A DNA stretch of 64,000 nt from an uncultured Chloroflexia bacterium (GCA_963725875.1 CAVRZZ010000004.1:279758-343757), one strand, 5' to 3'. Counted from the first letter of the stretch, positions 11,750 to 63,546 are shown. The notes: generated from the sequence alone by a model not told the origin. Numbers and translations: made by a program.

Positions 11750-12202
11750 TCAGCCGCCCGTCGAGCGTGAGCGTCCGCGGACCCGCGCGACGCCTCGCGC
11801 GATCCCGTAGCCGATCACCACGGGCGTCCCGAAGAAGAACAGCGCCAGCAGCCCGCTGAACGGGTCGACCGGAACCGGGTTGCCGACAGCTGCCGTGAGG
11901 AGCGGGATCGCGACCAGCCCGGCGACGACCCCGAAGGCCACGAATCCCAGCCCCGGCCACCCGCTCGTGAGGAACCCGGCAAGGAAGCCGGCTGCCAGGA
12001 GGAGGAGCGGCGAGATCAGGACGCCGTTGAGCGCGCATCTCGGGGTGAGGCCGTCGGCGGCGCAGCCGAGGAGGGCGCCACCCAGGAGCAGGCTGCCGAA
12101 CAGCGCCGCGGGACACGCGATGGCCACGAGGACGATCGCGGCGACGTCACGCGCGACGGCTCTGGAACCTCTGCTCACCCGGGCCTCCTCTGCAGCCCCC
12201 AT
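11750..12202 (-). CDS. integral membrane protein, hypothetical
   Basis: 'MGAAEEARVSRGSRAVARDVAAIVLVAIACPAALFGSLLLGG...' with 4 predicted TM helices. No other evidence. Confidence 0.45.
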   Translation of the reverse strand: MGAAEEARVSRGSRAVARDVAAIVLVAIACPAALFGSLLLGGALLGCAADGLTPRCALNGVLISPLLLLAAGFLAGFLTSGWPGLGFVAFGVVAGLVAIPLLTAAVGNPVPVDPFSGLLALFFFGTPVVIGYGIARGVARVRGRSRSTGG

Positions 12203-12319
12203 GATGCGCGATCGATCTCCGTCGATGTGGGCACTTCGGCAGGGTTGCGAGCCTTCGACCCGAGTCTCGACGTGCCCCGGCGACACCCGACCAGGGGCAC
12301 GGGCGTAGCCGCCGTCCGG

Positions 12320-13228
12320 TCAGGCGACGGGGAGCGCCGCGCGCCGTGGCCGCCCGGAGATCCCGAAGCGGGCCGGGCCGGATGCGGGCGGCCGCGCTGC
12401 CCCGCCGACCCGCCCACTTGCGAGCGCCACGGCCGCCAGGAGCATCGAGGCGCCGCCGAACCAGAGCGCGGGCAGGGCAACCATCGCGGCGACCGGGACG
12501 GTCCAGGCCCGGTCCGTCCGGGCGCCCCAGGTCACGATCGCGGCCGCGAACGGGAGGCGCAGCCAGACCGGGATCGGGATCGCGGCCCAGGTCCCGACCG
12601 TCTTGTTCGTGCTCGCCGCCAGCACGTCAAACCAGTCGGCCCACGCCGCGGGGGCGATCGTCCAGGAGACGGCCGCGACCGCCGCCGTCGCCCCCAGGGC
12701 GATCCCCAGGTTCCGCCACTCGTGCCGCACGGCGAACCAGAGGAGCCCGACGCCGGGGGTCACCTTCGTGAGGAGGACGAATGCCCACGCGGCCGGCCAG
12801 CGGAAGCCGGCAACGATCGCGACGGCGAGCAGCAGGTGGATGTTCCCGCCCAGGACCTCGAGGATCGCGAACGCGATCGCGACCGTCCACAGGCGCGCGC
12901 CGCAGAGCCAGCGGATGGCGAGCAGGAGCACCATCGTCCAGGCCGCCAGGAAGCCCTCCCACGGCAGCGCCTTCAGGGGTGCGATCGCCTGCAGGAACGC
13001 CGGTGAGTAGACGTAGGCGATCGGCTGGGTCCAGGTCGAGCGCGCGTACGGGTCAGCCAGGTCTGGGAACCAGTAGCAATAGGCTTCCTGGCCGGTCGGC
13101 CAGGCGGCCTCGGACGGGACCCGGTAGGCGAGAACGACGGCCAGGACGACGAACGCCGCAGCGATCCCCACGGCCTCGCGCCGGATGAGCATCCCAGGTC
13201 GTTGACCGGCGATCCTCGTGATGACCAC
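12320..13228 (-). CDS. polytopic membrane protein, GT87/DUF2029-like putative glycosyltransferase
   Basis: Multiple TM helices and an 'AYCYWFPDLADPYARSTW' loop. A GTG start is at 13228 and an alternative ATG at 13192. The family assignment is tentative. Confidence 0.55.
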   Translation of the reverse strand: MVITRIAGQRPGMLIRREAVGIAAAFVVLAVVLAYRVPSEAAWPTGQEAYCYWFPDLADPYARSTWTQPIAYVYSPAFLQAIAPLKALPWEGFLAAWTMVLLLAIRWLCGARLWTVAIAFAILEVLGGNIHLLLAVAIVAGFRWPAAWAFVLLTKVTPGVGLLWFAVRHEWRNLGIALGATAAVAAVSWTIAPAAWADWFDVLAASTNKTVGTWAAIPIPVWLRLPFAAAIVTWGARTDRAWTVPVAAMVALPALWFGGASMLLAAVALASGRVGGAARPPASGPARFGISGRPRRAALPVA

Positions 13229-13519
13229 CCCCGGGTGGAGAGCTCGCTATGCGTCGGCATCGGCCGGCCACGCACCGGCCGGGCACGCGCCCGCCGGGCA
13301 CATGCCGGTCGACCACGCACCGGCCCGCCGCCAGCATGGTCCGGCAGCGCGCTGGGCCCCAGATCCAAAGGTACCGGACCGATGCAACAGCGGGTGGTGC
13401 CCGATCCGGGTTGGTGACCGACGGCACGGTTCAAGGCCGTCGGAATCGCCCTTGTCGGGGAGGCGCGCGGCCGCGACGGTGAGCATGCCGCCACCGGGGC
13501 GGCGCCACAACGGCCGCGG

Positions 13520-14962
13520 TTGCCGCCGAGGGATGGCATGGCCCACGCCACGAGCAGGGGCGCCTACGGGCACCTCGCGGATCGCCTGAACCGCTTCCCG
13601 CAGGGAGCCCCCCCGTCCGACCTCCTGTACCGCATCCTCGCGCTTCTCTTCAGCGAGCGCGAGGCGGGGCTGGTCGCCCGCCTTCCGATCAAGCCGGTCA
13701 CGCCGGTCGCCGCGGCCCGGATCTGGAAGACGAGCGAAGCCGAGGCGCGCCGCGTGCTCGACGGGCTGGCCTCGCGTGCCGTGCTCCTCGACACGGAGGG
13801 CCCGGACGGGGTCGTCTACATCCTCCCGCCGCCGATGGCCGGCTTCTTCGAGTTCTCGATGATGCGGGTCCGCGACGACGTCGACCAGAAGCTCCTCAGC
13901 GAGCTCTTCTACCAGTACCTCACCGTCGAGGATGACTTCATCCTCAACCTGTTCACCCACGGACAGACGCAGCTCGGACGCGTCTTCGTCAACGAGCCCG
14001 CGCTCGCCGAGAGTGCGGACCGTGCGGCGGGCCCCGGATCCGGTCGTGCGAGCGCCACCGCGGCGCGCCTGTCGGCCGCCCGGCCGCCGGGTGCCGAGCC
14101 GTCGGGTGCCCGGCGGCCGCGTGCCGAGCCGCCTGGTGCCCGGCCGCCCCGTGCCGATGCCGGGCTTCACGTCCTCGACTACGAGCGCGCCAGCGAGGTG
14201 ATCGGCACCGCCGAGCACATGGGCGTCGGCACCTGCTACTGCCGCCACAAGATGGAACACCTGGGGCGGGCGTGCAGCGCCCCGCTGGGGATCTGCATGA
14301 CGTTCGGAGGCACGGCCGACGCGCTGATCCGCCACGGCTACGCCCGGCGCGTCGACCGGACCGAGGGGATGGACCTGCTCCAGGAGGCGTACGACCACAA
14401 CCTCGTCCAGTTCGGCGAGAACGTGCAGCGCTCGGTCAACTTCATCTGCAACTGCTGCGGCTGCTGCTGCGAAGCGATGATCGCGGCTCGCCGGTTCGGG
14501 ATGCTCGACCCGGTGCACACGACCAACTTCCTGCCGCACGTCGGCGACGAGGTCTGCAACGGCTGCGGCAAGTGCGTCGACGCCTGCCCGGTGGAGGCGA
14601 TGACGCTCGTCTCGGCGAACGATCCGGCCAAGCCCCGCAAGCGCCGGGCCTCCCTCGACGCCGACATCTGCCTGGGGTGCGGCGTCTGCACGCGCGTCTG
14701 CCCGACGAAGGGGCTCTGGCTGGAGGCCCGTGCACAGCGCGTGGTCACGCCGGTCGACACGCTCCACCGGACGGTGCTCATGGCGATCGAGCGCGGGCGG
14801 CTCCAGGACTGCATCTTCGACAACCGGGCGCTCTTCAGCCACCGGGCGATGGCGGCGATCCTGGGCGTGATCCTCCGCCTGCCTCCGACGAAGCAGGTCC
14901 TGGCCACGGAGCAGATGCGCTCGCGCTACCTCGTGAAGATCCTGGAGCGGGCCAGCTTCTAG
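13520..14962 (+). CDS. winged-helix plus 4Fe-4S ferredoxin-domain protein with Cys-rich 'CNCCGCCCE' motif (putative Fe-S redox/regulatory protein)
   Basis: N-terminal wHTH-like 'LLYRILALLFSEREAGLVARL...ARRVLDGLASRAVLL'. Two ferredoxin motifs 'CNGCGKCVDACP' and 'CLGCGVCTRVCP'. Extra Cys clusters 'CYCRHK' and 'CNCCGCCC'. Confidence 0.8.
   Translation: MPPRDGMAHATSRGAYGHLADRLNRFPQGAPPSDLLYRILALLFSEREAGLVARLPIKPVTPVAAARIWKTSEAEARRVLDGLASRAVLLDTEGPDGVVYILPPPMAGFFEFSMMRVRDDVDQKLLSELFYQYLTVEDDFILNLFTHGQTQLGRVFVNEPALAESADRAAGPGSGRASATAARLSAARPPGAEPSGARRPRAEPPGARPPRADAGLHVLDYERASEVIGTAEHMGVGTCYCRHKMEHLGRACSAPLGICMTFGGTADALIRHGYARRVDRTEGMDLLQEAYDHNLVQFGENVQRSVNFICNCCGCCCEAMIAARRFGMLDPVHTTNFLPHVGDEVCNGCGKCVDACPVEAMTLVSANDPAKPRKRRASLDADICLGCGVCTRVCPTKGLWLEARAQRVVTPVDTLHRTVLMAIERGRLQDCIFDNRALFSHRAMAAILGVILRLPPTKQVLATEQMRSRYLVKILERASF
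14085..14160. repeat. imperfect in-frame tandem repeat encoding (A)RPPGAEPSGARRPRAEPPGARPPRA inside the Fe-S protein gene
   Basis: 'ccgggtgccgagccgtcgggtgcccggcggccgcgtgccgagccgcctggtgcccggccgccccgtgcc' read directly. It forms a low-complexity insertion between the N-terminal domain and the Fe-S domain. Confidence 0.4.
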
Positions 14963-16015: not shown

Positions 16016-18936
16016 GCACAACCGAGCGCCGCCTCCACGACCGCATCCTCGAGCTCGCCGCCGTGGCGCTCGACTTCCGCCTGGCGCCCGCCGAAGCAGC
16101 CGACCTCGAGGGCCACCTCGCCGCCTGCCCGACCTGCGCCCGGACGGCGGCGGCCCTGCGGGCGGACACGGCCGCCCTCCGACACCCCGCGTCCCTCCTC
16201 CCGTCGCGCCGGACCGACGACGCGGTCGCCGCGGCCATCGCCGGGCGCCGGGTCCGCTCCGGGCCGCGCGCGCTCGTTCTCGTGGCGGCCACCGCCCTGC
16301 TGCTCGTCGCGCTCCTGGGCGCGGCCGCCGTGGGGACCTTCCTCCTGCAGACCCGGCCGCCGATCGTCGAGGTCCCGTCGCCACCGGTCGTCGTCGTGAA
16401 CCCGAGCCCCTCGCCGGCACCCGTCTGGCAGACGGGCACCCTGCCGCCGATGTTCACCGGCGGGCTCGCGTATCCCGTCGCGATCGCCGCGGGCGAGACG
16501 GGGTTCGCCGCGGTCGGCCCGAGAGTGTTCCGCGACGTCGACACGCCCGCCGGCGGCACGGCCGGCGCGTGGCGATCGCGCGACGGCCTTGCGTGGGAGC
16601 CGGCGACAAGCGTTGCGGGCCTCGCGGTCGGCGACAGCCTCGACATCGACGACTACCCGGATCCGGGCCTCGTCGACGTCGCCTGGGGCCCAGCGGGGTT
16701 CGTCGCGGTCGGGATCGCACGGGAGTCGGTCGACCGGGTCGGGGCCGCGTGGCACTCGAGCGACGGCCTTACGTGGGTTCGCACGGACCTTCCGGAGCCG
16801 GCACGCGCCAGGCCCGCGGCAGTGACCTGGAGCGGATCGACGTACGTCATCGTCGGCGTCGTCGAGGAGGAGACGGCCCCGCGCGCGGTGGCGTGGCTCT
16901 CCACCGATGGCCGCTCTTGGCGACGCGTTCCGGACGCCGAGGCGTTCGACATCGGCGGCTACATCACCTACCCGTCGGGCCGCGGCTCGGGCGGCCCCGC
17001 CGACGTGACGGTGACCCAGGACGGCTCGCTCGTCGCTGTCGGGAGAACGTGCACCGGGACGACGAGCATGGACGACACCTATGCGTGCCGGCCGATCGTG
17101 ATCAGCTCGAGCGACGGCGAGGCGTGGAGGACCGAGCCCCTTCCCGACGTCTCCGGCGGCGGCATCTCGCTGCCGTCGTCCGTTGCAGCGACTGCAAAGC
17201 GCGTGGTCGCCGTCTCCGGCGGGGCGGTCGAGGGCGATCCGTCCGTCTTCATCCGCGACGACGCCGGGTGGCGCGTCGTCGATCCGGCGGGTGTGCCGAC
17301 ATTCGCCCGCATCGTCGCATTCGGTGATCGGTTTGTGGCCCTCGCGACCACTGCCACCGCGATCTCCCTGTGGACATCGTCCGACGGCGAGGCGTGGGCG
17401 CCCGTGTCGGGCATGCCGCAACCGCCGGACGTGACGAGCCTCCACGAGGTCGACCTCGTCGCCGCCGGCACGCAGGTCGTCATCGTCGGCTCGGCAGAGG
17501 TGGGCTCCACCGAAGGATGGAGCAGCTTCGCGATCGCCTGGTCCCCGCGCCAGGCCGAGCCCGCCACTCCGACGCCCTCACCGTCCGTCCAGCCGGCGCC
17601 GGCCTGGGTCCCCGCTCCAGGCGCGCTCCCGGTCGCGAGCGGCACCGTCCAGCTCGCCGCGGGTCCGGACGGGGGCACCTACGTCGTCGTGAGCTCGGCC
17701 CGCGATGGGGCGGCGGTCCAGCGCGATCGCAGCGTGCTCGCGCTGCTCGACCCGTCCGGGGAGCCGCGAACCGGGTGGCCCGTCGCGGCCGACGGCTGGG
17801 CCTGCGCGAGCCCGGACGGCAGTGCGTGGCCGCCGGAGGTCGCCGGCGACGGCTCCGTCACGGTGCTGTGCCGCTCGGGGGAGACCCCAGACGGGAGCGT
17901 TCGGACCAGCGCCTCCCGGTTCGACGCGGCGGGCAGGCTGCTCGCCAGCTGGTCGCACGACGGGGAGTCCTCGGGCCGCCCGCGGGTCGTCGACGGCCGA
18001 CTCCTCGTGATCGCCGACGAGGTGACGGAGGAGCAGGTCACCGGTGACAGCGGTCAGGCGGAGACCCGCTACACCGCCGCCTACTGGCTGGACGAGGTGG
18101 CCGCGGACGGCACTCGGCGATCCGGCGTGCGCCTGGACGTGGGCGAGGCTGGCTGGCCAGTCGTGCTGGGCCCCGACGGCACCGCCTATCACGTGGACAT
18201 GGAACAGGGCGTGATTACGGCGTTCGATCTCGACGGCCGGCTCGCCGGCTGGCCCGCGCGGCTCGACGGGAGCCTGTCGGCGCTCGGGTTTGGGCCCGAC
18301 GGCCGGGTCTACGTGACCGTGGCGCCGGCCGCAGCGGGTGCCTCCAGCCTGGTCGTGCTGGCGCGCGACGGCAGCACGGTGGCGAGATCGGACACCTTGC
18401 CCCTCGACGGCACGATCGCCTACAGCGGCGCCGGGCCGGGTGGCCGGCCGATGGCGCCGCTCGTCGCGGACGACGGCACGGCGTTCGTCATCGGCGAGGC
18501 CGCCGACCACACGGTCGTCTACGCGATCGACCCGTCGGGGGCGGTCAAGAGCGGCTGGCCGTATCGAGCGGACACTGCCGTGCAGTGGCAGGGGACCTGC
18601 CCGGCCGAGACCGCCGGTTGCGGCGTCTGGCGCGCGTCGCCCGCGGTGGGCCCGGACGGCATTGTCTACCTGCCACTTGCCGCGCCCGACGCGCAGGTCG
18701 GTGGCAGCGTTGCCGCGATCGGTCCCGACGGCCGGGCGATCGCCGGCTGGCCGATGCACCTCGCACGCCGGGGCGCCGAGTTCTGGGCGGCGGTGGCCGG
18801 GTCCGGTGACACGGCCTGGGCGGTTGCGGTCGAGCCGGAGGCCGGCGGGGGATCCTCGGCGACCGTCCTCGCGTTCGCGGCGGACGGAGCCGTTCGCTCC
18901 CGGACCACGGTGGTCGACCCCAAAGCCGGCAGCTGA
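16012..18936 (+). CDS. zf-HC2-type anti-sigma factor with a single TM helix and an approximately 870-aa extracytoplasmic beta-propeller-like domain
   Basis: N-terminal 'HLAACPTCA' zinc-finger anti-sigma motif. TM 'LVLVAATALLLVALLGAAAVG'. Long ectodomain with repeated 'DG..W'/'W....DG' motifs. Confidence 0.75.
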   Translation: MSTTERRLHDRILELAAVALDFRLAPAEAADLEGHLAACPTCARTAAALRADTAALRHPASLLPSRRTDDAVAAAIAGRRVRSGPRALVLVAATALLLVALLGAAAVGTFLLQTRPPIVEVPSPPVVVVNPSPSPAPVWQTGTLPPMFTGGLAYPVAIAAGETGFAAVGPRVFRDVDTPAGGTAGAWRSRDGLAWEPATSVAGLAVGDSLDIDDYPDPGLVDVAWGPAGFVAVGIARESVDRVGAAWHSSDGLTWVRTDLPEPARARPAAVTWSGSTYVIVGVVEEETAPRAVAWLSTDGRSWRRVPDAEAFDIGGYITYPSGRGSGGPADVTVTQDGSLVAVGRTCTGTTSMDDTYACRPIVISSSDGEAWRTEPLPDVSGGGISLPSSVAATAKRVVAVSGGAVEGDPSVFIRDDAGWRVVDPAGVPTFARIVAFGDRFVALATTATAISLWTSSDGEAWAPVSGMPQPPDVTSLHEVDLVAAGTQVVIVGSAEVGSTEGWSSFAIAWSPRQAEPATPTPSPSVQPAPAWVPAPGALPVASGTVQLAAGPDGGTYVVVSSARDGAAVQRDRSVLALLDPSGEPRTGWPVAADGWACASPDGSAWPPEVAGDGSVTVLCRSGETPDGSVRTSASRFDAAGRLLASWSHDGESSGRPRVVDGRLLVIADEVTEEQVTGDSGQAETRYTAAYWLDEVAADGTRRSGVRLDVGEAGWPVVLGPDGTAYHVDMEQGVITAFDLDGRLAGWPARLDGSLSALGFGPDGRVYVTVAPAAAGASSLVVLARDGSTVARSDTLPLDGTIAYSGAGPGGRPMAPLVADDGTAFVIGEAADHTVVYAIDPSGAVKSGWPYRADTAVQWQGTCPAETAGCGVWRASPAVGPDGIVYLPLAAPDAQVGGSVAAIGPDGRAIAGWPMHLARRGAEFWAAVAGSGDTAWAVAVEPEAGGGSSATVLAFAADGAVRSRTTVVDPKAGS

Positions 18937-19037
18937 CCGCCGACGCCGCCCGGCCGCACCGCCCGGCCGCACCGCCCGGCCACACCGGTGCGATCAACCA
19001 CCCACGGCACCGCAGCGGCGCGCCGGCCGAACCCGGT

Positions 19038-19066
19038 TTGACTGAACAAAGATTCAGTTCTACGCT
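19038..19066 (+). promoter_or_regulatory. sigma-70/SigA-like promoter TTGACT-N17-TACGCT driving the tetR gene
   Basis: Read directly. The -35 TTGACT and -10 TACGCT have a 17-nt spacer. The region is AT-rich relative to the genome, and the downstream TTG start has a GAGAGAAGG RBS. Confidence 0.5.
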
Positions 19067-19090
19067 CTCTCCTGAATCAACGTTCAGTCA
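19040..19090. promoter_or_regulatory. nested palindromic operator pair (CTGAAcaaagaTTCAG and CTGAAtcaacgTTCAG inside outer TGACTGAAC...GTTCAGTCA inverted repeat) overlapping the tetR promoter
   Basis: Read directly. One palindrome is inside the promoter spacer and the other downstream of the -10. This is the classic TetR autoregulation layout. Confidence 0.55.
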
Positions 19091-19103
19091 TCTGGAGAGA
19101 AGG

Positions 19104-19760
19104 TTGGCCGCCGCGGGACGCCCACAGCGCGGAGGGAGGCAGGCAGCGAGCACCGCCAGCCGGGCCCGGCTCCTTGACGCTGCCCGGGTTCTCTTCGCCG
19201 AGCGTGGCTACCACGCCTGCCGGGTGGCCGACGTCGCGCAGCGAGCAGGCATGGGCCCCGGCAACGTCTACTGGCACTTCGACTCGAAGGAAGCGGTCCT
19301 CGCGGCGATCCTGGCCGACGGTTTCGCCGCGCGCGAGGCGATGACCGCCGGGGTGGCCGACGAATACGGCCCGGCGCGCCGCAAGCTGGAGATCCTGGTG
19401 GACCGGACGATCGCCTTCTACACCGAGCAGGCCGCGTTTCTCCGCATCCTCGCCGGCATGTCGGGACCCGGCGGCCGGGAGCTCATCGCCTCGCTCGGGT
19501 TCAACGTGCCGGAGATCGAGCGGCGCAGCCGGGCGAACGTGCGCCGAGTCCTCGCCGAGGCGCGCTCGGAAGGCGCGATCGCCCCTGCGGATCCGGACCA
19601 GCTCGTCGCATTCTTCATGGCGTTCTTCGACGGCCTGCTGGTCGGATCGGACGGGCGCGGGTCCGACGGGCGCGGATCGGACGGGCGCGGGCCCGCCGTG
19701 CCGCAGGAGGGCGTTCGCGACACGGCCCTGCGCCTGCTGGGACATCGGCCCGCGGGGTGA
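19104..19760 (+). CDS. TetR/AcrR-family transcriptional regulator
   Basis: N-terminal HTH 'ARLLDAARVLFAERGYHACRVADVAQRAGMGPGNVYWHFDSKEAVL'. A (GSDGR)3 repeat sits near the C-terminus. TTG start assumed; the ORF table starts at 19038, inside the operator. Confidence 0.8.
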   Translation: MAAAGRPQRGGRQAASTASRARLLDAARVLFAERGYHACRVADVAQRAGMGPGNVYWHFDSKEAVLAAILADGFAAREAMTAGVADEYGPARRKLEILVDRTIAFYTEQAAFLRILAGMSGPGGRELIASLGFNVPEIERRSRANVRRVLAEARSEGAIAPADPDQLVAFFMAFFDGLLVGSDGRGSDGRGSDGRGPAVPQEGVRDTALRLLGHRPAG

Positions 19761-47929: not shown

Positions 47930-48205
47930 CGCGATGTCCTCCGGGCCGGCGGCGGGCCCCTGCCCGGAGAGGCGCCGTTCCCGTTCGACCCGCAGCAACG
48001 AACGGGCGGCACTCCTGTTACGGCCAAGCGCCTGCCGTCACGCTCCATGCTGGGGTTCGGGACGTTCGGCCCTCGCCCCGCGCATCACGGACGCCCACGC
48101 TAAGCGGTTGGCGGGGAGCTCTGACACGCGGTCCACGCCCCGGCCGCCCGGACCGCGCCGAGCCACTGGCGAGACCGACCCGCGGTGAAGCCTCAGGAGG
48201 TTCCC

Positions 48206-54982: not shown

Positions 54983-55325
54983 CCGTCACCCCTCCGCGAC
55001 CGAACCGCCCGGTCCTCGTGTGCGGCGTCGCGGCGTGCTGCCGGGAGTGCGGCCATGGTGCGCCCCGTCCCCTGGGCGCACACGAGCCCGGCGTCACGAC
55101 TTCGGGCGCCATGTGGCCGGGACATGCGGGGGCGTGGCGACACCGCGCGGTGAAGTCGCCCTGCGGCACGTCGGGCGGGGCCGGCAGGAGTAGGACGCTG
55201 ACCGACACGCCCTCGTTGTCCGATCCGTGGCACGCCCGGAGGGCATCCAGCGCGCGCGAACAGCACGGACGAAGGTGGCCCGGGTGTGCGCTCGACCCCT
55301 TCCAGTGGTCTGGCATCCTGTAGCA

Positions 55326-56870
55326 GTGAGCTTCGAAGCAACGGCAGGCGTCGGCGTCGGCTCGTGGATCGAACGGCGAGCGCGGGTCCATCCGGATCGC
55401 CCCGCGATCATCACCGGGGGTCGATCGGTCACCTACGGGAAGCTGGCCGAGCGGATTCGCCGGCTGGCGGGCGGTCTCGACCGCCTCGGGGTCGTGCGGG
55501 GCGATCGCGTCGCCTGGATTGGCCCCAACCACGGCGCCTTCCTCGAGGCGTTCTTCGCGGCCGGCACGCTTGGCGCCGTCATTGCCCCGGTCAATCACGG
55601 CCTGGCGTCGAACGAGCGTGCCAAGGTGCTGGAGGACGCCGAGCCCACGGTGTTGATCGAGCATCACGCCGTGGCGCCCACCCGCGCGCCCGCCTCGGTC
55701 CGCCACCGCCTCGTCGTCGGCCCGGGTGTTGTGGCGGGCGCTATCGACTACGAGACGTTCGTCGCTGGGTCGCCGGATCATGTGCTCGAGGTACGCATCG
55801 CCCTCGACGACCTGCTCTTCCTACCCCACACCTCGGGCACGACCGGGTCTCCCAAGGGCGTGATGCTGAGCCACGGCAACGTGACCTGGAACGTCGTCAA
55901 CTTCCTGTCCCGCGCCGACTTCAGGGGCGACGACGTGACGATTGCCATCGCCCCGTTCTTCCGGGTCGGCGGCACGGGCGTCAACGTGCTGCCCGTGCTC
56001 TTCCTCGGCGGCACCGTCGTCGTGCCGGACGACGTCACTGGTGATGGGCTCCTCGGGGTCATCCAACGGCACCGTGTCAGCGTCGGCTTCGGCAACCCGG
56101 ACGTGCTTGACGAGCTGACGCGCGCCGAGCGATGGGCGGGGGCCGACCTGTCCGGCATCCGGTTCATCCTGACCGGGGGTGCACCGGTACCCGAACGGTT
56201 GATCCGCGCGTACCACGACCGCGGGGTCGCGCTGGTCCAGGGCTACGGGCTCTCAGAGGCGGGCCCCCTCGTCCTGCTTCTCGACGCCGAGCGTTCGCTC
56301 CAGAAGGTCGGGTCTGCCGGTCGACCGCCTCTGCTCGTCGACATCCGGATCGTCGATCTCGACGGGCACGATGTCGAGCCTGGCCAGACCGGCGAGCTGC
56401 TGGCACGTGGCCCGAACGTCATGTCCGGGTACTGGCGGCGACCCGCCGAGACCGGGGAGGCGCTGGTCGCAGGTGGCTGGCTGCGCACCGGTGATGCGGC
56501 TCGCGTGGACGACGAGGGCGACGTCTGGATCGTCGATCGCGTCGACGCCAGCTTCATCGCCGGCGGTCGGACGGTATATCCCGGCGATGTCGAGCGCCAG
56601 CTCATGACCCATCCCGCGGTCGCCGACGCCGGGGTCGTGCCGATTGCCACCCCCGAGGGCGACATGGCCGGAGCGGCGTTCGTCGTCCTGCTGCCCGGGA
56701 GCTCGGTGACCGAGACGGAGCTTCTCGAGTTCGCCCGCAGGCGCCTCGGCCCATACGAGGTGCCGTCCTCGATCACCCCTCTCGACCGGCTCCCGCGGAG
56801 CTCGGTCGGCAAGCTGCTGCGGGCCGACCTGCGCACTCTCGCCGGTAGTGAGGCCGCCGAGGAGGGTTGA
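55326..56870 (+). CDS. AMP-dependent acyl-CoA synthetase/ligase
   Basis: 'LPHTSGTTGSPKGV', 'GYGLSEAG', 'GWLRTGDAA'. GTG start assumed. The ORF table begins at 55227. Confidence 0.8.
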   Translation: MSFEATAGVGVGSWIERRARVHPDRPAIITGGRSVTYGKLAERIRRLAGGLDRLGVVRGDRVAWIGPNHGAFLEAFFAAGTLGAVIAPVNHGLASNERAKVLEDAEPTVLIEHHAVAPTRAPASVRHRLVVGPGVVAGAIDYETFVAGSPDHVLEVRIALDDLLFLPHTSGTTGSPKGVMLSHGNVTWNVVNFLSRADFRGDDVTIAIAPFFRVGGTGVNVLPVLFLGGTVVVPDDVTGDGLLGVIQRHRVSVGFGNPDVLDELTRAERWAGADLSGIRFILTGGAPVPERLIRAYHDRGVALVQGYGLSEAGPLVLLLDAERSLQKVGSAGRPPLLVDIRIVDLDGHDVEPGQTGELLARGPNVMSGYWRRPAETGEALVAGGWLRTGDAARVDDEGDVWIVDRVDASFIAGGRTVYPGDVERQLMTHPAVADAGVVPIATPEGDMAGAAFVVLLPGSSVTETELLEFARRRLGPYEVPSSITPLDRLPRSSVGKLLRADLRTLAGSEAAEEG

Positions 56871-56879
56871 CCGCGCGGA

Positions 56880-57110
56880 GCCGGAGTACCTGGCGCGCCC
56901 GGTACCGGGACGGCGGCCTCGATGCCCTCGAGCCGCGCTCGCGCCGGCCACGCAGCAACCCCGGCCGGACGCCGGAGGAGGTCCGGCTGGTAACGCCCGA
57001 ACCGCTCAAGCGCCCGCGCAGCTCGTGGATCCGCTTCGAGGCCTCGGCGCCCAACGAGCCGTGGCAGCCCGACCTTGGTCCCATCGGGCATCGTGACCCG
57101 ATGATCAGGC
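56880..57110 (+). mobile_element. remnant of a transposase N-terminus (HTH_32-like segment fused to the start of a DDE core), heavily deleted
   Basis: 'WRARYRDGGLDALEPRSRRPRSNPGRTPEEV' and 'RFEASAPNEPWQPDL' resemble the IS481/IS3-type 'RSRRPHRSPxRTP' and 'PGELWQxD' blocks. No complete ORF. Confidence 0.5.
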
Positions 57111-57166
57111 CGCATGCCGTCCCTCACCACGCGCCCGTGTTGCCTGGGCGCTCGCGTCGGCGAGCC

Positions 57167-57886
57167 TCAGCTCGCGATCGACCGGATCCGCTCGGTCGTC
57201 GTGGGGACCGATCGCTCCACGAGCCTCCAGGCGCCGTCGCGCCAGACCTCGTAGGCGCGGAACACGCACGGCACACCCTTGGCCGTCACCACCTCTGGCC
57301 CGTCCATCAACTGGAAGTGGAGGTGCGGGGCGGTCGAGTTGCCGGTGTGACCCACCCGTCCGAGCACGTCGCCCTCGTGTACGACCTGGCCGGGCGTGAC
57401 CGCCACCGACCCGGTCGTCAGGTGGGCGAACCCGGCATAGGCCTCGTCGCAGCGGAGGATGACGTGGTTGCCGAGAACCCGGTGCAGCCCGTCTGGTGTG
57501 GCCCGGAAGGTGACTGCTGTCCTGAGCACGAGGGCGAGCTCCCGCAGGGGGTGGATCCTGGCGCGCTCGGGCAGCCCGTCCCGGGCTGCGACGACCTCTC
57601 CGTCGAGGGGCGCATGGACGGGTTCCCCCCAGCCGTGGCACTCGCGGGTCGGTACGCCGACCAGCAGGGTCCGCAGGCCGCCGGCGGGGTGGTAGCGGCC
57701 ATTCCGGTCGGGATCGAAGCGGATGAGGTCGAACGCGTAGCGCTGCGCCAGCATGTCGGTCCCGTGGCTCGGGATCCGGCTCCCGGGCGAGTGCACGGCC
57801 ATCCACTCGCCACGCAGGGGAAAGTCGACAACGAGCGCCCCCTCGAGCTCGGACGGAGACCCGGGAACATCCACGCTCGGGATCAT
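57167..57886 (-). CDS. M23-family metallopeptidase (peptidoglycan endopeptidase-like)
   Basis: 'HxxxD' then 'GHTGNSTAPHLHFQL' zinc-binding motifs. Confidence 0.75.
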   Translation of the reverse strand: MIPSVDVPGSPSELEGALVVDFPLRGEWMAVHSPGSRIPSHGTDMLAQRYAFDLIRFDPDRNGRYHPAGGLRTLLVGVPTRECHGWGEPVHAPLDGEVVAARDGLPERARIHPLRELALVLRTAVTFRATPDGLHRVLGNHVILRCDEAYAGFAHLTTGSVAVTPGQVVHEGDVLGRVGHTGNSTAPHLHFQLMDGPEVVTAKGVPCVFRAYEVWRDGAWRLVERSVPTTTERIRSIAS

Positions 57887-57928
57887 AGGCTCGTCCCGCG
57901 TGGTCGGGCGGCTCGTCGCCGGCTGCCT

Positions 57929-57975
57929 TGGCGCGCCCTGAGGGCGTCGGGCGCGCAGGAGCCGGACAGATCCGC
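57929..57975. repeat. dispersed intergenic repeat, type A (TTGGCGCGCCCTGAGGGCGTCGGGCGCGCAGGAGCCGGACAGATCCGC)
   Basis: Near-identical to 60712..60759. It lies in the divergent M23/GT4 promoter region. Confidence 0.7.
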
Positions 57976-58129
57976 GGCCGGCCGATCTCAACCGCGCCGC
58001 TTCCCGGAGCGCAGGCTCGGTGCCATGGCTGTCGACCCGAGACGCCACCGCGCAGGTGATCCACTCCCGAGGAACCCCGGGTCGGCATCGCAGGCTTCAC
58101 CGCCGGCCGTGTTCAGGCAGGATGGGGGG

Positions 58130-59374
58130 ATGCGGATCCTGCTCTGGCACGGTTACCTGCTCGGCGGCACCGGCTCCAACGTCTACACGCGCCAGCTCGC
58201 GCGTGCGTGGATGCGGGCGGGACACGACGTCACGGTGTTCTGCCAGGAGCCGCGACCCGACGCGCACGACCTCGGCGGCGCACCCGTCGTCCGGCCTGAC
58301 GTCGGTGGACTCCTGCCGGTGTTCGTCGTGGACCGCTACGAGGGATACGAGGTCAAGCTCGTTCAGGACTGCCGGGTCGACGAGCTCGATCGCTGGGTGG
58401 AGGCGAATGCCAGGGCCGTGATCGAGCACCTCCCGGCCGACGTCGTCTTCTGCAATCACGTCCTGCTCGGGGGACCGGTCGGCGTGGCCAGCGGCTCGCG
58501 CTTCGCGGTGAAGGCGCATGGCTCGGAGCTCGAGTACGCGATGCGGGGCAACCCGACCCTGGCGGCGTGGGGGCGAGACTGCCTTCAGCAGGCCGCTGCT
58601 ACCTTCGTCGGCTCCGCCCACGTGCGTCGCGTTCTCGGGGACGTGTGCGGCCACGTCGATCGCGTCCACGAAGTCCCGCCGGGGGTCGACATCGACGACT
58701 GGATGCCAGAGGAGCGGGCTACGGCGCTCGCCGCCCTCCTGGCTGAGGCATGGCGCGACCCCCCGAACCCGGCCAACGCCGAGGAGCGGCTTCCCGACGA
58801 AGGGAACGCCGAGCGCCTCGGCCGATTCCTCGACGGCGACCGGCCGACGGTCGTCTACTTCGGGAAGCTCATGCGCAACAAGGGGGTGCACGTGCTCCTC
58901 GAGGCGCTCGACGGCGTCGACGCACGCACGATCATCGTCGGCTTTGGGGATCACCGTCCGGAGCTGGAACGGCTCGCCGGCGAAGGAGTCCTCTTCACGG
59001 GTCCGCTCGAGCACCGGCATCTTGTGCACCTGCTCGCCCTGGCTGACGCGTGCGTCGTCCCGTCAACCTTTCCCGAGGCGTTCGGGATGGTTGCCGCCGA
59101 AGCCGCTGCCACCGGGTGCCCGCCGCTGGTTGCGCGCCACTCTGGGCTTGCGGAGATCGCCGCCGGCCTCGCGGAGGAATACCCGCCGGAGCTGCGCCAC
59201 CTCGCCGGCTTCACCTCGGGCGACGTGGGTGATCTCCGGGTGAAGCTCACTGAGCTCCTCGCCCTCGGCCCGACCGATCGGGCGGCCATTCGCGCCTCGG
59301 CGCGGCGGGCCGCGGTGGAGCGGTGGAGCTGGACCAGTGTCGCGCACCGGCTCCTGGAGCCGCTCGCACGCTGA
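58130..59374 (+). CDS. GT4-family (GT-B, 'glycosyl transferase group 1') glycosyltransferase
   Basis: 'MRILLWHGYLLGGTGSNVYTRQLARAWMRAGHDVTVF' and the EX7E-like region 'PSTFPEAFGMVAAEAAATGCPPLV'. Confidence 0.85.
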   Translation: MRILLWHGYLLGGTGSNVYTRQLARAWMRAGHDVTVFCQEPRPDAHDLGGAPVVRPDVGGLLPVFVVDRYEGYEVKLVQDCRVDELDRWVEANARAVIEHLPADVVFCNHVLLGGPVGVASGSRFAVKAHGSELEYAMRGNPTLAAWGRDCLQQAAATFVGSAHVRRVLGDVCGHVDRVHEVPPGVDIDDWMPEERATALAALLAEAWRDPPNPANAEERLPDEGNAERLGRFLDGDRPTVVYFGKLMRNKGVHVLLEALDGVDARTIIVGFGDHRPELERLAGEGVLFTGPLEHRHLVHLLALADACVVPSTFPEAFGMVAAEAAATGCPPLVARHSGLAEIAAGLAEEYPPELRHLAGFTSGDVGDLRVKLTELLALGPTDRAAIRASARRAAVERWSWTSVAHRLLEPLAR

Positions 59375-59403
59375 CACGAGTCCTCGTTCCCCGCTCAGAT
59401 CGA

Positions 59404-59490
59404 TGGCGCGCCCGGAGGGCTGCCAACACTCTCTGCCAACCATCGTGACTGAGGGAGTGGACGTGCTGATTGAGGCACTCCGAGCCGCGT
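59404..59490. repeat. dispersed intergenic repeat, type B (shared 5' core TGGCGCGCCCGGAGGG plus a conserved CGCCAAC..TCGTGAyTGAGGG..GACGTG segment with a stem-loop GGAGTG-N16-CACTCC)
   Basis: About 80% identical to 63424..63510. It lies in a convergent intergenic region. Confidence 0.7.
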
Positions 59491-59628
59491 AGCCAGTGGG
59501 CTACGCGGACGGGAACGACCTGGACCGGACGGATTGGTCGGAATCGGCCAATGCCAAGTCGGATGGCACTCCAGAGAAGCAGCCCGCTCGTCCTCGGAGG
59601 GCGAGCGGAGCGCCGTGGGGAGCCACGG

Positions 59629-59985
59629 CTAAGGACCGTCGAGCCTCAGCCGCGTGCCTCTCAGCGTGATCTGGCGATCGTCGACGCCGCCGTCCGGGAG
59701 CGGTCGGGAGATCGAGCCGGACACCTCGTAGGTCTCCCCGTCCTCGGATACTTCCACGCTGCCCGCGGCGGTCTGCCAGCCGACGAATGAACGGTCTTCC
59801 GCCTCGATGGGGCGTGTGACCAGGAGTTCCGCGCGGCGGTCGCCCGTCGCTCGCCAGACGCCCTGCGCGCCATGAAACGCGGAAGTGACGAGCATGGTCC
59901 CGTCCTCGCGGAAGCCATGGGTGACGCGGCTCCTCGTCGCGTCCTCGACTTCGACCAACCAGACCCCGACGAGTGGGTGGGTCAT
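59629..59985 (-). CDS. hypothetical small protein (118 aa)
   Basis: ATGA overlap with the upstream SRPBCC gene. No motif recognised. Confidence 0.5.
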   Translation of the reverse strand: MTHPLVGVWLVEVEDATRSRVTHGFREDGTMLVTSAFHGAQGVWRATGDRRAELLVTRPIEAEDRSFVGWQTAAGSVEVSEDGETYEVSGSISRPLPDGGVDDRQITLRGTRLRLDGP

Positions 59986-60398
59986 ATCGCCTCGGCCTCG
60001 ATCAGCTCCTTCATGTTCCGAAGGCTTCGCTCCATGAAGGCCGGGTCGAACCGGTCGATCCCGGCAGGCAACTGCACCGACGTCGCGAGCCGGGTCGCGG
60101 TCCTCCCGACGGCGTCGAAGGTCGTCCGGCCGGCGATCTCGAAGGGTCCGTCGCGGATGACCATCCCGATGGCGCGCTCAGGTTCGAACTCGACGACCTC
60201 CATGGTCCCCTCCACCGGGGTCGCCCCGCGGGTGTTCCGGCGCCGGATGACCGTCCCGACGCCGATCGGTCCGTCGGTCACCGGCCAGAGCTCGATGCCC
60301 GGATCCCAGCGCGGATGGTTCCGGATGTGCTCGACGGCGTAGAAGTCGAACACCACGGCCGGCGGGCGTTCGATGACGATCGATCGCTCAACGTTCAT
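59982..60398 (-). CDS. SRPBCC (polyketide cyclase/dehydrase, Bet v1-like) family protein
   Basis: 'MNVERSIVIERPPAVVFDFYAVEHIRNHPRWDPGIE...' has the typical SRPBCC N-terminus. Confidence 0.65.
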   Translation of the reverse strand: MNVERSIVIERPPAVVFDFYAVEHIRNHPRWDPGIELWPVTDGPIGVGTVIRRRNTRGATPVEGTMEVVEFEPERAIGMVIRDGPFEIAGRTTFDAVGRTATRLATSVQLPAGIDRFDPAFMERSLRNMKELIEAEAI

Positions 60399-60711
60399 GG
60401 TCCCCCTCCCTGACCGCGGCGTCGGCGCCCCGCGTCGGCGGATTGTGCCCGCCCCATCGGCGGTTGTCCAGACGCGCCACGAGCCATCCGTGTCCCCAAC
60501 CACGGTGGTGGGGCCAGCACCGCCGCGCTGGGCAGTGCCGGGGCTCGGGACAGCCGGCTGAGGAAGCCCCGCCGAGAGGCGAACGGCCCCCCGCCCGACC
60601 GGTGCGCGTCCCATCTACGCCCGGTGCGGAGCCGGGGGCGAGCGTCGGAGCGAGGGTAACGACGTCCGCTCATCGCTCATCGCCTCGGCGACGTTGCGGG
60701 CGAGGAGGAGC

Positions 60712-60759
60712 ATGGCGCACCCGGAGGGCGTCGGGCGCGCAGGAGCCGGACAGATCCGC
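60712..60759. repeat. dispersed intergenic repeat, type A copy 2
   Basis: 'atggcgcacccggagggcgtcgggcgcgcaggagccggacagatccgc'. It lies in a divergent promoter region. Confidence 0.7.
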
Positions 60760-60775
60760 AGCGCATACTCAGGCA

Positions 60776-61771
60776 ATGGCGGAGATGCCCGGCTTCACGC
60801 CGAGCGTGAACCGTTCGATCATCGTCGGCATCCCGGACCTGCCGGGAGGGCTCCGTGGGGCACGCGCCTTCGACTGGCTGTCGAGCGTCGGCATCGCCCG
60901 CCGGGTCCGCGAGCGGCTCCCGGGCGTCGATCTCGCCCCCGTGCCGGACGGGCTTGGGACGGACGTCATCATCGCTGCGGCGCCGTACCCGAGGGCACTC
61001 GACGCCATGGTCACGGCAGGTGACGCCACGGCCATGGCGCTTGCCGACGATCTCGGGGTGGCGCTCGCGGGGCTCGTCGTGACGCTCGTTCTTGGACCCC
61101 CGGATGCGCGCGCCGCACGCCCCGACTGGCCGGCCGAGCACTGGGAGCGCTGGGCGGCCGTGCGCCGGATCGTGCTGGGGGGCGGGATCGCCTCCGGTGT
61201 GCTCGGCAGGCGACTGGTCGCGTCTGCGACCGCGTGGCTACCCCGCCTGGGCGGGAGCGAGGTTCACCTCCGGCTGGCCGACGATCCCGGATCGCTGGCC
61301 CTGCTCGGCGCCGCGACGAGGCTGCCTGACGGGCCGGCGGTGCTCGTCGATGCCGGTCTCACGTGGATCAAGCGTGGACTCGCCACGGTTCACGACGGGC
61401 GATGCGTCACCCTTACCACCATGGCGGCCGTGACCCCACCGCTCGGCCCGCGAGCTGGCGCGCTCGCCGACTTCCTTGCGGACGCGGCCGCCGACGTCGT
61501 CCAGGGCTCGAGCGTGTCGTCGGCCGGGTTCGCAGTCGCCGCAGACGTGGATACGATCGGCCAGCCGCTCGCCGGCCAGCCGGGACTCTACGGGTCCCTT
61601 GGGACGGTCTTGCTCGCACGACGGCTTGCCGACCGCCTCGGAGATCGCCTCGGCTACCCGGTCACCGTGCAGACCGTCAACGACGGGGATGCCGCGGCCG
61701 CGGCGATGGCCGGAGAGGCGGACGCGGTGATCATGCTGGGAACGGCGATCGGCGTCGGGCTCAACGTCTGA
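60776..61771 (+). CDS. hypothetical protein (possibly ASKHA/ROK-like fold; unassigned)
   Basis: 'MAEMPGFTPSVNRSIIVGIPDLPGG...AAAMAGEADAVIMLGTAIGVGL'. No firm motif. Confidence 0.5.
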   Translation: MAEMPGFTPSVNRSIIVGIPDLPGGLRGARAFDWLSSVGIARRVRERLPGVDLAPVPDGLGTDVIIAAAPYPRALDAMVTAGDATAMALADDLGVALAGLVVTLVLGPPDARAARPDWPAEHWERWAAVRRIVLGGGIASGVLGRRLVASATAWLPRLGGSEVHLRLADDPGSLALLGAATRLPDGPAVLVDAGLTWIKRGLATVHDGRCVTLTTMAAVTPPLGPRAGALADFLADAAADVVQGSSVSSAGFAVAADVDTIGQPLAGQPGLYGSLGTVLLARRLADRLGDRLGYPVTVQTVNDGDAAAAAMAGEADAVIMLGTAIGVGLNV

Positions 61772-61860
61772 GGGCCCGCGGCCGCGACGTGGGTGCCCGA
61801 CAGGGCGGCATCCGCTCCCGTGTCGCCGGCCGGCCGATCGCACCGGGGTTCGGGAAGACC

Positions 61861-61895
61861 TGGCGCGCCCGGAGGGCGTCGTGACTTTGCCCAGC
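61861..61895. repeat. dispersed intergenic repeat, short hybrid copy (TGGCGCGCCCGGAGGGCGTCGTGACTTTGCC)
   Basis: Shares the core with type A and the CGTGACT segment with type B. Confidence 0.6.
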
Positions 61896-62259
61896 AGCCC
61901 GACGGTTCGATCTGGGCGACCACGGACTCCTCGGCATCGAACCATCCGGCATCGCGTTCGACGCGCGCGCCGACGGACGAAGCCGCTGCGGGAGCGTCCT
62001 GAGCCACGGGAGCGCACCGCGACGCAGCTCGGCCAGGTCGAGGGCTCGGGCACTGCGCGGGCGCTCGGCCATGAACCGCTCGATGGTCTGCTCGAGTCGC
62101 GAGCCGAGTGACCGCCCGGCCGCGCGCCCGATCTCGCGGAGCGTGCCCGCGTCGCGATGGACGTGATCCGATGTGGCGCTCACGGTCTGCGCGTCCTGCC
62201 CTGGCCACCTGGGAGTCGGGGGGATGAGTTCGCGCGGATGCGCTGCGATACTCAATGCG

Positions 62260-63405
62260 ATGTCCCTTCGCGCGTCATCCGCGGACGGTGGCCCGATCGC
62301 TGCGATGCGGCTGACGGCCCAGCGCCTCGGCACCACGCGTTCCGCGTCGCCCGCGGACGCGGTGCGGTGGATGCTGGCCGTCCAGGCGCAGGAGCTGCCG
62401 GGCGCGAAGTGGTCGCTGGGGTTGCGCACCGCTGGCTGCACGGAGGCCGCCGTGGACGCGGCGCTCAACGCGGGTGAGATTGTCCGCTCCTGGCCGTTGC
62501 GCGGAACCCTCCACCTCGTAGCTGCCGAGGACATCGTCTGGCTCCTCTCGCTCACAGGATCGCGCCAGATCGGCCGCGCGGCGTCTCGTCGCAGCGCGCT
62601 CGGGATCACGGACTCGGACATCGGGCGCGCTGATGACGCGGTGCGGGCTGCCCTCGCAGGCAGGCGCACTCTGCCCCGGGACCAGCTCCTCGCGCGGATC
62701 CGGGCGGCCGGTGTTGCGACGGACGGCCAGCGGGGCTACCACCTGATATGGCACCTGGCGCACGGGGGGACGCTCGTCATGGGCGCTGCCGACGGTCGGG
62801 GCCAGGTGTTCGCGCTGCTCGAGGACTGGGTGACGATCCCGCCGACCATCGACCGCGACGAGGCCCTCGGCCAGCTCGCCCTTCGCTATCTGCGATCCCA
62901 CGGCCCCGCAGGCGACGCGGACCTGGCTCGGTGGGCGGGCATCCCCCTCGGCGAGGCTCGGCGGGGACGCGCCATCTGCGGCGCCGTGCTGGCGACGATC
63001 GAGCTCGGAGGCAGGACCTACCACCTCGACCCCGACACGCTCGATCGCGAGACGGCTGCCGTTCCCCCACCTGTGACCCGGACCCTCTTGCTGCCGGGCT
63101 TCGATGAGTACCTCCTGGGGTACGGGGATCGGTCGGCGGTCCTGGCACCCGAGCATGCCGACCGCATCGTCCCCGGCGGCAACGGGCTGTTCCGGCCGAC
63201 GATCGTCGTCGACGGCCGGGTGGTCGGCACGTGGCGCCGGACGGCCCGCGCCGGAGACATCCTCGTCGTTCCCGAGCTGTTCGGCCCGCCTGATGCCGAG
63301 CTGCTCGCCGGCCTCTCTGACGCGGCCAGGGCATACGGGTCGTTCCTGGGTCGGGACGCCCTCCTCGCCACTATCGGACTCGCGGCGCCTGGCGCGTCAA
63401 CCTGA
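62260..63405 (+). CDS. YcaQ/AlkZ-family (DUF1006) winged-helix DNA glycosylase-like protein, second paralogue
   Basis: 'AVRWMLAVQAQELPGAKWSLGLR' matches the 'VVAVQAQEP' block of the first copy. The ORF table starts at 62173; the ATG at 62260 is preferred. Confidence 0.65.
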   Translation: MSLRASSADGGPIAAMRLTAQRLGTTRSASPADAVRWMLAVQAQELPGAKWSLGLRTAGCTEAAVDAALNAGEIVRSWPLRGTLHLVAAEDIVWLLSLTGSRQIGRAASRRSALGITDSDIGRADDAVRAALAGRRTLPRDQLLARIRAAGVATDGQRGYHLIWHLAHGGTLVMGAADGRGQVFALLEDWVTIPPTIDRDEALGQLALRYLRSHGPAGDADLARWAGIPLGEARRGRAICGAVLATIELGGRTYHLDPDTLDRETAAVPPPVTRTLLLPGFDEYLLGYGDRSAVLAPEHADRIVPGGNGLFRPTIVVDGRVVGTWRRTARAGDILVVPELFGPPDAELLAGLSDAARAYGSFLGRDALLATIGLAAPGAST

Positions 63406-63423
63406 GGTCAATGCACGACGAGC

Positions 63424-63510
63424 TGGCGCGCCCGGAGGGATCCGAACCCGCTCCGCCAACATTCGTGATTGAGGGCGTCGACGTGTCTGTCGCGACCCTA
63501 CGAGCTGCGT
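63424..63510. repeat. dispersed intergenic repeat, type B copy 2
   Basis: 'tggcgcgcccggagggatccgaacccgctccgccaacattcgtgattgagggcgtcgacgtgtctg'. It lies in a convergent intergenic region. Confidence 0.7.
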
Positions 63511-63546
63511 GAAGGGGGATTGTCGCCCCGATGCCGCGGCAGGAGC

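Follow-up and report, generated by a model that had tools for sequence, protein, structure and literature searches.

The stretch of DNA analysed here, 64,000 nucleotides from an uncultured Chloroflexia bacterium (GCA_963725875.1 CAVRZZ010000004.1:279758-343757; taken at its full length as 'the window'), carries a family of short repeats built on the core TGGCGCGCCCGGAGGG. We assign a probability of about 0.8 to the interpretation that these repeats are attachment (att) scars derived from the 3' end of a tRNA-Arg gene, produced by the repeated site-specific integration and recombination of tRNA-targeting mobile elements in a high-GC lineage of the Chloroflexota. The core is followed either by a short arm (type A) or by a longer tail (type B), the latter being the end of a large serine recombinase (LSR) gene. 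Under this interpretation, the region from 55.2 to 63.5 kb is a decayed, mosaic integration hotspot, comprising two LSR-tail junctions (at 59404 and 63424), three type A or decayed copies (55228, 57929 and 60713) and one solo core (61861). Uncultured soil Chloroflexota have almost no mobile-element annotation so far; in this lineage, TGGCGCGCCCGGAGGG would serve as a marker of tRNA-Arg-derived recombination junctions and help to delimit accessory DNA.

The core corresponds, in reverse complement, to the final 16 bases of tRNA-Arg(TCG). Read on the opposite strand, ...CCCTCCGGGCGCGCCA consists of the 3' strand of the T-stem, the 3' strand of the acceptor stem, the discriminator G and CCA, and it corresponds to tRNA positions 61-76 in L001, L006, L007, L014, L017, L030 and L059 (loci compared with the window are given L numbers). 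In L001, a close relative whose GT4 glycosyltransferase gene is 92% identical to that of the window, ARAGORN places the tRNA-Arg(TCG) at 11278-11354 on the minus strand, in the very position that copy 59404 occupies in the window: right after the same GT4 3' end and the flank 'cagatcga'. Downstream of GT4, the core continues as a tRNA in L001, as type A in L053 and as type B in the window, and the intact tRNA of L001 and the core plus LSR tail of the window are, with their shared host flank, the empty and the occupied form of one site. Also in L001, 22 nt of the tRNA 3' end are repeated 36 nt upstream of GT4. Two simpler derivations from the tRNA were considered and rejected. Type B is not a decayed full-length tRNA pseudogene, as the match to tRNA-Arg stops after ~26 nt, neither ARAGORN nor Rfam detects it and the rest of the repeat codes for the LSR; nor is type A an internally deleted tRNA gene, the sequence past GGGCGCGC (AGGAACAACA) being unlike the regions upstream of the tRNAs.

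Beyond the core, type B bears the signature of protein-coding DNA. A metagenome scan with the core plus TCGTGAYYGAGGG returned at least 120 stretches, and the type B counts given from here on hold among the matches listed. In 88 of 104 unique copies, the frame (N)TG GCG CGC CCG GAG GGn ends in a stop exactly at codon 30, the consensus translation being L, M or V followed by ARPEGSEHTPPTIVIEGVEELVEALRAA and the stop. Entropy at codon positions 1, 2 and 3 is 0.44, 0.42 and 0.87 (positions fixed by the search pattern excluded), conservation drops to ~1.8 bits right before TGG and right after the stop, and the first codon is not kept as a start codon. The left flanks of type B fall into discrete families, the largest of which comprises 17 loci where an LSR coding sequence runs in frame via the core into the tail (...ADLLHAIYDRIVVKGRSIVAARLTPAAYSNGLALALPQVV-M-ARPEG...). 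The LSR open reading frame (ORF) is complete in L177, where it encodes 507 residues with a C-x-C...C motif and is accompanied by a Prim-Pol/DUF3631 replicase and a tyrosine recombinase; the locus represents a mobile element equipped with a large serine recombinase. By tblastn, more than 100 type B copies, including 59403-59489 of the window, match just LSR residues ~478-507 and are orphan tails. The type B tail is thereby shown to be the last 29 codons of an LSR of ~507 amino acids. Since the LSR reading frame crosses the core, the element has its att site within the 3' end of the gene for its own recombinase. Of 90 copies of the tail, 77 end in -RAA or -LAA. Viral contigs scanned for exact type B gave no match.

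Both states that such an att site predicts can be recognized. LSRs of 64-68% identity found in IMG/VR form a sister family, directed to tRNA-Arg(CCG). Two of its members (L184 and L183) have an LSR that ends with a tail of its own, termed B2 (...ARPTGVGRGITTYEIPIEGRDEW..., then stop), and represent the attP state, whereas the LSR frame of L185 continues into a genuine tRNA-Arg(CCG) gene encoded on the other strand (...ALPEKVE-MARPTGFEPATFGSGGRRSIH, then stop) and represents the attR state, with a Prim-Pol/D5 replicase upstream. These attP and attR layouts are what an att site located in the last ~30 LSR codons would predict. In the alignment, the window sequence left of the core matches L001 and that right of the core matches the L177 LSR tail, where L053 has type A. 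Window copy 59404 is thus shown to be the complementary attL: host flank, core and orphan LSR tail.

The window copies themselves were sought both with the 21-mer TGGCGCGCCCGGAGGGCGTCG (up to three mismatches), against shuffled sequence, and with profiles built from many related copies. The pattern has six matches in 64 kb against 0.07 expected, a number never reached by shuffles, and all six (55228, 57929, 59404, 60713, 61861 and 63424) are on the plus strand. The nhmmer profiles recover the same six, adding just one weak candidate, and neither search finds a further copy in the window outside 55228-63512. The initial annotation had reported five copies, confined to 5.6 kb and present in every intergenic region of that stretch. 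All five are real, one of them beginning at 60713 and not 60712; the degenerate copy at 55228 (nhmmer E 4e-8) had been overlooked, and the family extends over ~8.3 kb (55228-63512) with six, possibly seven, members. Nor does every gap contain one: the gap around 59985 has no copy, and neither does the one that separates 61881 from the AlkZ-like gene. The 5' edge of the copies is abrupt at TGG, upstream of which their flanks are unrelated to one another.

The type B pair, with 76% identity over 87 nt (~80% over ~87 bp had been claimed), occupies 59403-59492 and 63423-63512, both on the plus strand. In the former, the GT4 3' end and 'cagatcga' are followed by the core (59404-59419) and by an orphan 29-codon LSR tail with its TAG (MARPEGCQHSLPTIVTEGVDVLIEALRAA, then stop), supported by tblastn with LSR residues 479-507, by nhmmer (E 1e-21) and by the alignment with L001, L053 and L177. 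The latter lies 19 nt past the stop of the AlkZ-like gene and comprises the core (63424-63439) and a second orphan tail (LARPEGSEPAPPTFVIEGVDVSVATLRAA, then stop; nhmmer E 5e-21). The segment TCGTGAyTGAGGG singled out in the initial annotation is indeed conserved in type B, its meaning being the 3' coding end of a serine recombinase gene. At 59485-59508 (plus strand), a 10-bp stem-loop (the GCGTAGCC..GGCTACGC region) overlaps the stop codon of the LSR tail (z = -3.05 for the fold of 59395-59520).

Type A is represented at 57929-57978 by the core (G11 replaced by T) and the right half-site CGTCGGGCGCGCAGG (plus strand; nhmmer E 6e-10), with GAGCCGG as a lineage-specific variant of the outer motif GAACAAC, and at 60713-60762 by a copy (plus strand; nhmmer E 9.5e-9) that shares this variant arm, their left flanks being unrelated. 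The pair, described as ~95% identical, is 94% identical over 50 nt. The degenerate copy at 55228-55266 (plus strand), a core with one mismatch and a decayed right half-site, was detected with a profile of 86 type A copies and lies between divergent beta-lactamase-family and AMP-ligase genes. The assignment of type A to divergent promoter regions holds for all three copies, none of which is in a 3'-end setting; none of the three exceeds shuffled sequence in folding stability (z = -0.9, 0.1 and 1.5). At 61861-61881 (plus strand; nhmmer E 8.5e-6), there is a solo core, a perfect 21-mer whose type A arm is reduced to its first 5 nt. The weak candidate is a possible truncated core, TGGCGCGCCCGG, at 56891-56903 (plus strand), 21 nt past the AMP-ligase stop (nhmmer E 0.38, not significant alone).

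Where type A has a left arm, it forms a near-palindrome of ~44 bp centred on G15|G16 of the core, in which the inner 8 bp pair in 81-95% of 86 copies and the outer GTTGTTC/GAACAAC motifs sit 16-22 nt from the centre. A size of ~44 bp and symmetry of this kind are typical of serine-integrase att sites. Over the 86 copies, the right arm is conserved in sequence to +37, whereas the left outer arm is present in only ~40%, which fits what is predicted of recombination junctions and not hairpin covariation. Structure-driven covariation in the outer stem, hinted at by the complementary variant at 57929, found no support across the 86 copies. The right arm has its counterpart in the opening codons of the B2-type LSR tail (ARPEGVGRAGTTT versus ARPTGVGRGITTY); no coding frame through type A was recovered, there being no conserved ORF length or sequence past ...GVGRAGTTT. 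Several independent micro-duplications stop at G15 (GGAGG|T), in L026, L054, L059 and L135. At L026:3252-3269, L054:3234-3254 and L059:7671-7689, the first 15 nt of the core are duplicated 1-5 nt apart (TGGCGCGCCCGGAGGT..TGGCGCGCCCGGAGGG), in L059 directly against the genuine tRNA. These micro-duplications may be footprints of recombination at G15/G16.

Type A occurs widely in soil Chloroflexota. When one genome per species was scanned for the core plus CGTCG, 58 stretches were obtained, ~38 of them in metagenome-assembled genomes (MAGs) of Chloroflexota ('uncultured Chloroflexia', Limnocylindrales), and the site is conserved in them as (y)GTTGTTC-TGGCGCGCCCGGAGGG-CGTCGGGCGCGCAsGAACAACA, often several times within a few kilobases. 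The copies form same-strand arrays with members ~1-3 kb apart, some ending at a tRNA gene; adjacent blocks hold 3 to 6 copies across 10-19 kb, and the median core spacing is ~1.7-1.8 kb, a figure biased downward by block and contig sizes. Among loci with at least two cores, 68 of 69 have all of them on one strand. Of 38 core-bearing Chloroflexota blocks, 6 contain a tRNA, which in every case is tRNA-Arg(TCG), runs antisense to the core and occupies the same end of the array. The left gene reads toward the element, in the element's orientation, in 43 of 57 cases, with tandem settings numbering 21 versus 7. Pfam searches of 114 array genes return as recurring families zinc-dependent alcohol dehydrogenase (Zn-ADH), AlkZ-like, TetR, SRPBCC and M23, accessory kinds that are also found in the window, and no recombinase or transposase family in two or more of these genes. 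Matches to the 21-mer in Caldilinea and outside the Chloroflexota have no type A arm; at least those in Caldilinea, Micromonosporaceae, a delta-proteobacterial MAG and an Actinomycetota MAG fall within long ORFs, and the matches are read as chance. One family of left flanks (L082, L096, L144, L174, L178 and others) contains a tandem ~20-nt motif, CTCATGTGTCACCTATGTCGCGA, ending ...GACTCAAGACA|TGG; the motifs may serve as arm-type binding sites or belong to the 5' end of an opposite-strand gene.

In the inferred mechanism, the LSR would bind a pseudo-palindrome of ~44 bp, with GTTGTyM-TGGCGCGCCCGGAG as its left half and CGTCGGGCGCGCAsGAACAAC as its right half, and would cut at the central G15-G16, the non-palindromic GG setting the direction of the site. 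Type A would then be an LSR site without the coding tail. Repeated integration, together with recombination between resident copies, would generate the same-strand mosaic of the window, the recombinase and the tRNA gene having either been lost or lying beyond position 64000. The window copies are probably relics, since type A there folds no better than shuffled sequence and 64 kb contain neither a recombinase nor a tRNA; the alternative is that active parts lie beyond position 64000.

Several points weigh against tRNA-targeted integration by an LSR as the origin of the window repeats. No recombinase was found in the 64-kb window beyond the tail by tblastn with two LSRs and one tyrosine integrase, and no tRNA by ARAGORN, so that the local array is not attributable to a resident element. 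The intervals between copies in the window are just 1.1-2.7 kb, contain ordinary metabolic genes and fall far below the size of typical integrative elements, and homologous recombination between repeats of 16-40 nt could yield part of the partner switching. An attR junction joining LSR, core and tRNA(TCG) is absent among the loci sampled, attR being seen for the CCG sister family alone. Domain searches lend the recombinase itself weak support: in L177, Resolvase is matched at E 2e-11 and Recombinase at E 2e-3, below the curated cut-off, no zinc-ribbon domain is reported by Pfam, and a PDB sequence search with the LSR returned nothing relevant. Finally, tyrosine integrases also adjoin the core in L135, L177 and L185, and for this reason the identity of the catalysing enzyme is not proven.

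The recombinases near the core are indeed of more than one kind. L135 contains a 135-nt direct repeat (3040-3174 and 13949-14083; 95.6% identical), composed of 111 nt left of the core and 24 nt of the core; one copy continues into a type B tail and the other into a genuine tRNA-Arg(TCG). The tRNA-side repeat is abutted by a tyrosine integrase (12856-14004, minus strand) and a full-length RelA/SpoT gene lies between the two repeats, a layout indicating that a second recombinase family uses the same core. In L185, another tyrosine integrase (11543-12643, plus strand) starts 29 nt past the 5' end of the LSR-fused tRNA-Arg(CCG), which has recombinase genes on both sides, the LSR being at its 3' end. 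L183 holds a second, partial LSR (18605-19183, minus strand; residues ~318-505, 57% identical) that has a core and a B2 tail of its own and lies inverted, ~7 kb from the complete one. A second LSR family, 36-39% identical to the LSRs of L177 and L184, is represented at L130:3110-4648 (plus strand) and in L167; it lies inside an array, on the strand opposite to the cores, and its 3' end has no core.

That the repeats are a real family tied to gene boundaries and possibly mobile DNA, as the initial annotation proposed, is borne out; the more specific proposals made there, and others that the data suggest, compete with the origin from tRNA-Arg integration. An improbable alternative is that type A is a self-spreading palindrome resembling repetitive extragenic palindromic (REP) sequences or bacterial interspersed mosaic elements (BIMEs), which would act as a 3'-end hairpin (a terminator or stabilizer of mRNA) and whose likeness to the tRNA acceptor stem would be ancestral or incidental. 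Canonical type A does fold as a 17-bp hairpin (in L017, -37.6 kcal/mol, z = -2.7), the copies examined sit between predicted genes, 43 of 57 lie 10-250 nt downstream of the left gene, convergent settings outnumber divergent ones 16 to 4 and no recombinase family occurs in at least two of the 114 array genes. Yet the outer stem shows no covariation, its right arm being conserved in sequence and its left arm fitting ~40% of copies; the bias among tandem settings (21 versus 7) is unexpected of a perfect palindrome acting as a terminator; and the copies, instead of being dispersed, form clustered same-strand arrays associated with one tRNA gene. The right arm, moreover, equals the first codons of the B2-type LSR tail, the three window copies fold like shuffled sequence and all occupy divergent positions, and no transposase family, of the REP-associated (RAYT) type or any other, recurs in the 114 array genes. 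Of the earlier label 'REP/MITE-like', the first half survives only as a description of the palindromic, intergenic look of type A. The second half, denoting miniature inverted-repeat transposable elements (MITEs), is discarded: the copies lie on one strand, in the window as in 68 of 69 multi-copy loci, and within the window they have no inverted partner, no terminal inverted repeats and no target-site duplications.

Type B could instead be an independent micro-protein of 29 residues, MARPEG...EALRAA, expressed in place, and its strong codon periodicity, the stop fixed in ~90 copies and the ATG at the start of copy 59404 would suit such a gene. We regard this as very unlikely, given that the first codon is NTG of near-maximal entropy (1.94 bits) with CTG the commonest form, and that the upstream sequence is unconserved (entropy 1.83) and so holds no conserved ribosome-binding site; the coding signature is explained alone by the same 29 codons forming the C-terminus of the 507-residue LSR in 17 loci. 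More remote still are the suggestions that the core is a regulator-binding motif defining a local regulon (M23, GT4, SRPBCC, YcaQ), or that the elements are small structured or tRNA-like RNAs. Three copies do lie in divergent promoter regions, and the core with the type A arm is palindromic like many operators. A shared regulator motif is contradicted by a core that matches a tRNA 3' end exactly and links genes of unrelated kinds across dozens of genomes, and by the location of half of the window copies past stop codons. The structured-RNA proposal fares no better: Rfam returns no match at the repeats even at E up to 10, ARAGORN finds no tRNA anywhere in the 64-kb window, covariation of the outer stem is lacking, the window copies fold no better than shuffled sequence, and type B past ~26 nt is not tRNA-like but recombinase coding sequence.

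The genes around the repeats, assigned by Pfam or composition, are in order a beta-lactamase-family gene (minus), an AMP-ligase (plus), an M23 peptidase (minus), GT4 (plus), a hypothetical gene (minus), SRPBCC (minus), a second hypothetical gene (plus), AlkZ-like/YcaQ (plus) and an amidohydrolase (minus). The M23 peptidase gene, either cargo or flank (57167-57886, minus strand; PF01551, E 3e-14), was considered as an orthologous flank shared by the window and L001 and ruled out, no close homologue being found. The SRPBCC (Polyketide_cyc2) gene at 59982-60399 (minus strand) is cargo of a family that recurs in the arrays of other genomes. The GT4 gene (58130-59374, plus strand) resembles a cassette: in the window, L001 and L053 it has core copies on both sides and different neighbours each time, and between the window and three other GT4 loci homology is restricted to the gene itself. 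Metagenomes and MAGs labelled Chloroflexi commonly contain GT4 homologues of 85-94% identity. A degenerate core-like remnant precedes the start of GT4 orthologues by ~30-50 nt (for example GACGCGCGCCGGGACAG or GGCGCGCGGGAGG; L003:9935-9995, L004:9945-9995, L053:3617-3660), and the association of core and GT4 looks old because the remnant is present also in L003 and L004, where no core closely follows GT4. The AlkZ-like gene (62173-63405, plus strand) and the core just downstream recur as a unit in L089 and L019, again with neighbours that differ from locus to locus; the core is directly 3' of the gene in the window and L089, and the L019 alignment stops at the corresponding position, without a recognizable core. 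Unrelated to the repeats, a c-di-GMP-II-GAG riboswitch aptamer (RF03169, 66.9 bits, E 3.5e-11) at 48105-48189 (plus strand) is the sole Rfam hit in the window.

Taken together, these features permit a more ambitious but tentative reading, which we consider rather unlikely as a whole: a tRNA-Arg-anchored gene-cassette platform driven by a serine recombinase in soil Chloroflexota, combined with self-regulation of the recombinase by the swap of a 29-residue tail. In the cassette part of this reading, 44-bp palindromic type A att sites may punctuate same-strand arrays of segments with one to three genes, and segments such as GT4, AlkZ-like and SRPBCC may be shuffled between sites in trans, in the manner of integrons. 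In the tail-swap part, the free LSR may end in an ssrA-like -LAA or -RAA, and the integrated form in a peptide encoded antisense to the tRNA; by analogy with mycobacteriophage BPs, the -RAA or -LAA ends of 77 of 90 tails suggest an integration-dependent C-terminal switch with a putative degron. If the arrays are active, they would constitute integron-like gene shuffling without an integron integrase, and if the tail swap controls the stability or directionality of the LSR, it would be the serine-integrase counterpart of mycobacteriophage integration-dependent immunity. Natural attP/attB pairs (tRNA-Arg TCG and CCG) would, if this is true, be ready for genome engineering.

Systems of this general kind are already known; what looks new is the att site inside the 3' end of the recombinase's own gene, together with arrays of small, cassette-like segments. 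In the literature, of which our coverage is incomplete, we found no description of the tRNA-Arg/LSR arrangement in Chloroflexota, which is absence of evidence only. The nearest described counterparts, which come from the same phylum, are the ssrA genomic islands (ssrA-GIs) of Dehalococcoides, tandem islands downstream of a small-RNA gene, with a ~20-bp direct repeat of the 3' end of that gene and insertion in the T-loop region; their integrase is the large serine recombinase DsiB, which is CcrB-like, and some islands without an integration module have been read as cis-mobilizable elements gathered by accretion (McMurdie et al. 2011, PMC3146451). Both systems have tandem, small-RNA-linked units bounded by 3'-end repeats and, by description, an LSR integrase. 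The target is the transfer-messenger RNA gene there and tRNA-Arg(TCG) or (CCG) here, and unlike the ssrA-GIs, the present system has its att site in the recombinase's own 3' coding end, intervals of ~1-3 kb instead of the size of islands, and a 44-bp palindromic solo site (type A) conserved over many genomes.

In mycobacteriophage BPs and its relatives, attP lies in the 3' end of an ORF, and integration replaces the last ~30 residues of the repressor, whose free form is ssrA-like tagged (Villanueva et al. 2015, PMC4557955, and work it cites). Both systems swap a C-terminus of ~30 residues at an attP inside an ORF, the tail here being of 29 residues; the split gene there encodes a repressor, with a tyrosine integrase as the enzyme, whereas here it encodes the serine recombinase itself. 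Archaeal integrases of the SSV1 type are encoded by an int gene that contains attP and is partitioned when the element integrates into a tRNA gene. As here, a recombinase gene bearing its own attP is split at a tRNA-Arg, with fragments beside tRNA genes; unlike here, these are tyrosine recombinases and the split, near the 5' end, inactivates the gene, while in the present system only the last 29 codons are exchanged. The repeats do not show the GTTRRRY core sites of integron attC, and no integrase family occurs in two or more of the 114 array genes. The arrays nonetheless resemble those of integrons in their same-orientation segments of one to three genes, each followed by an imperfectly palindromic site, and in genes that recur in varying array contexts; they differ from integrons, whose IntI, attI, Pc and attC R/L boxes they lack, in having a tRNA-derived site, a serine recombinase and genes on both strands.

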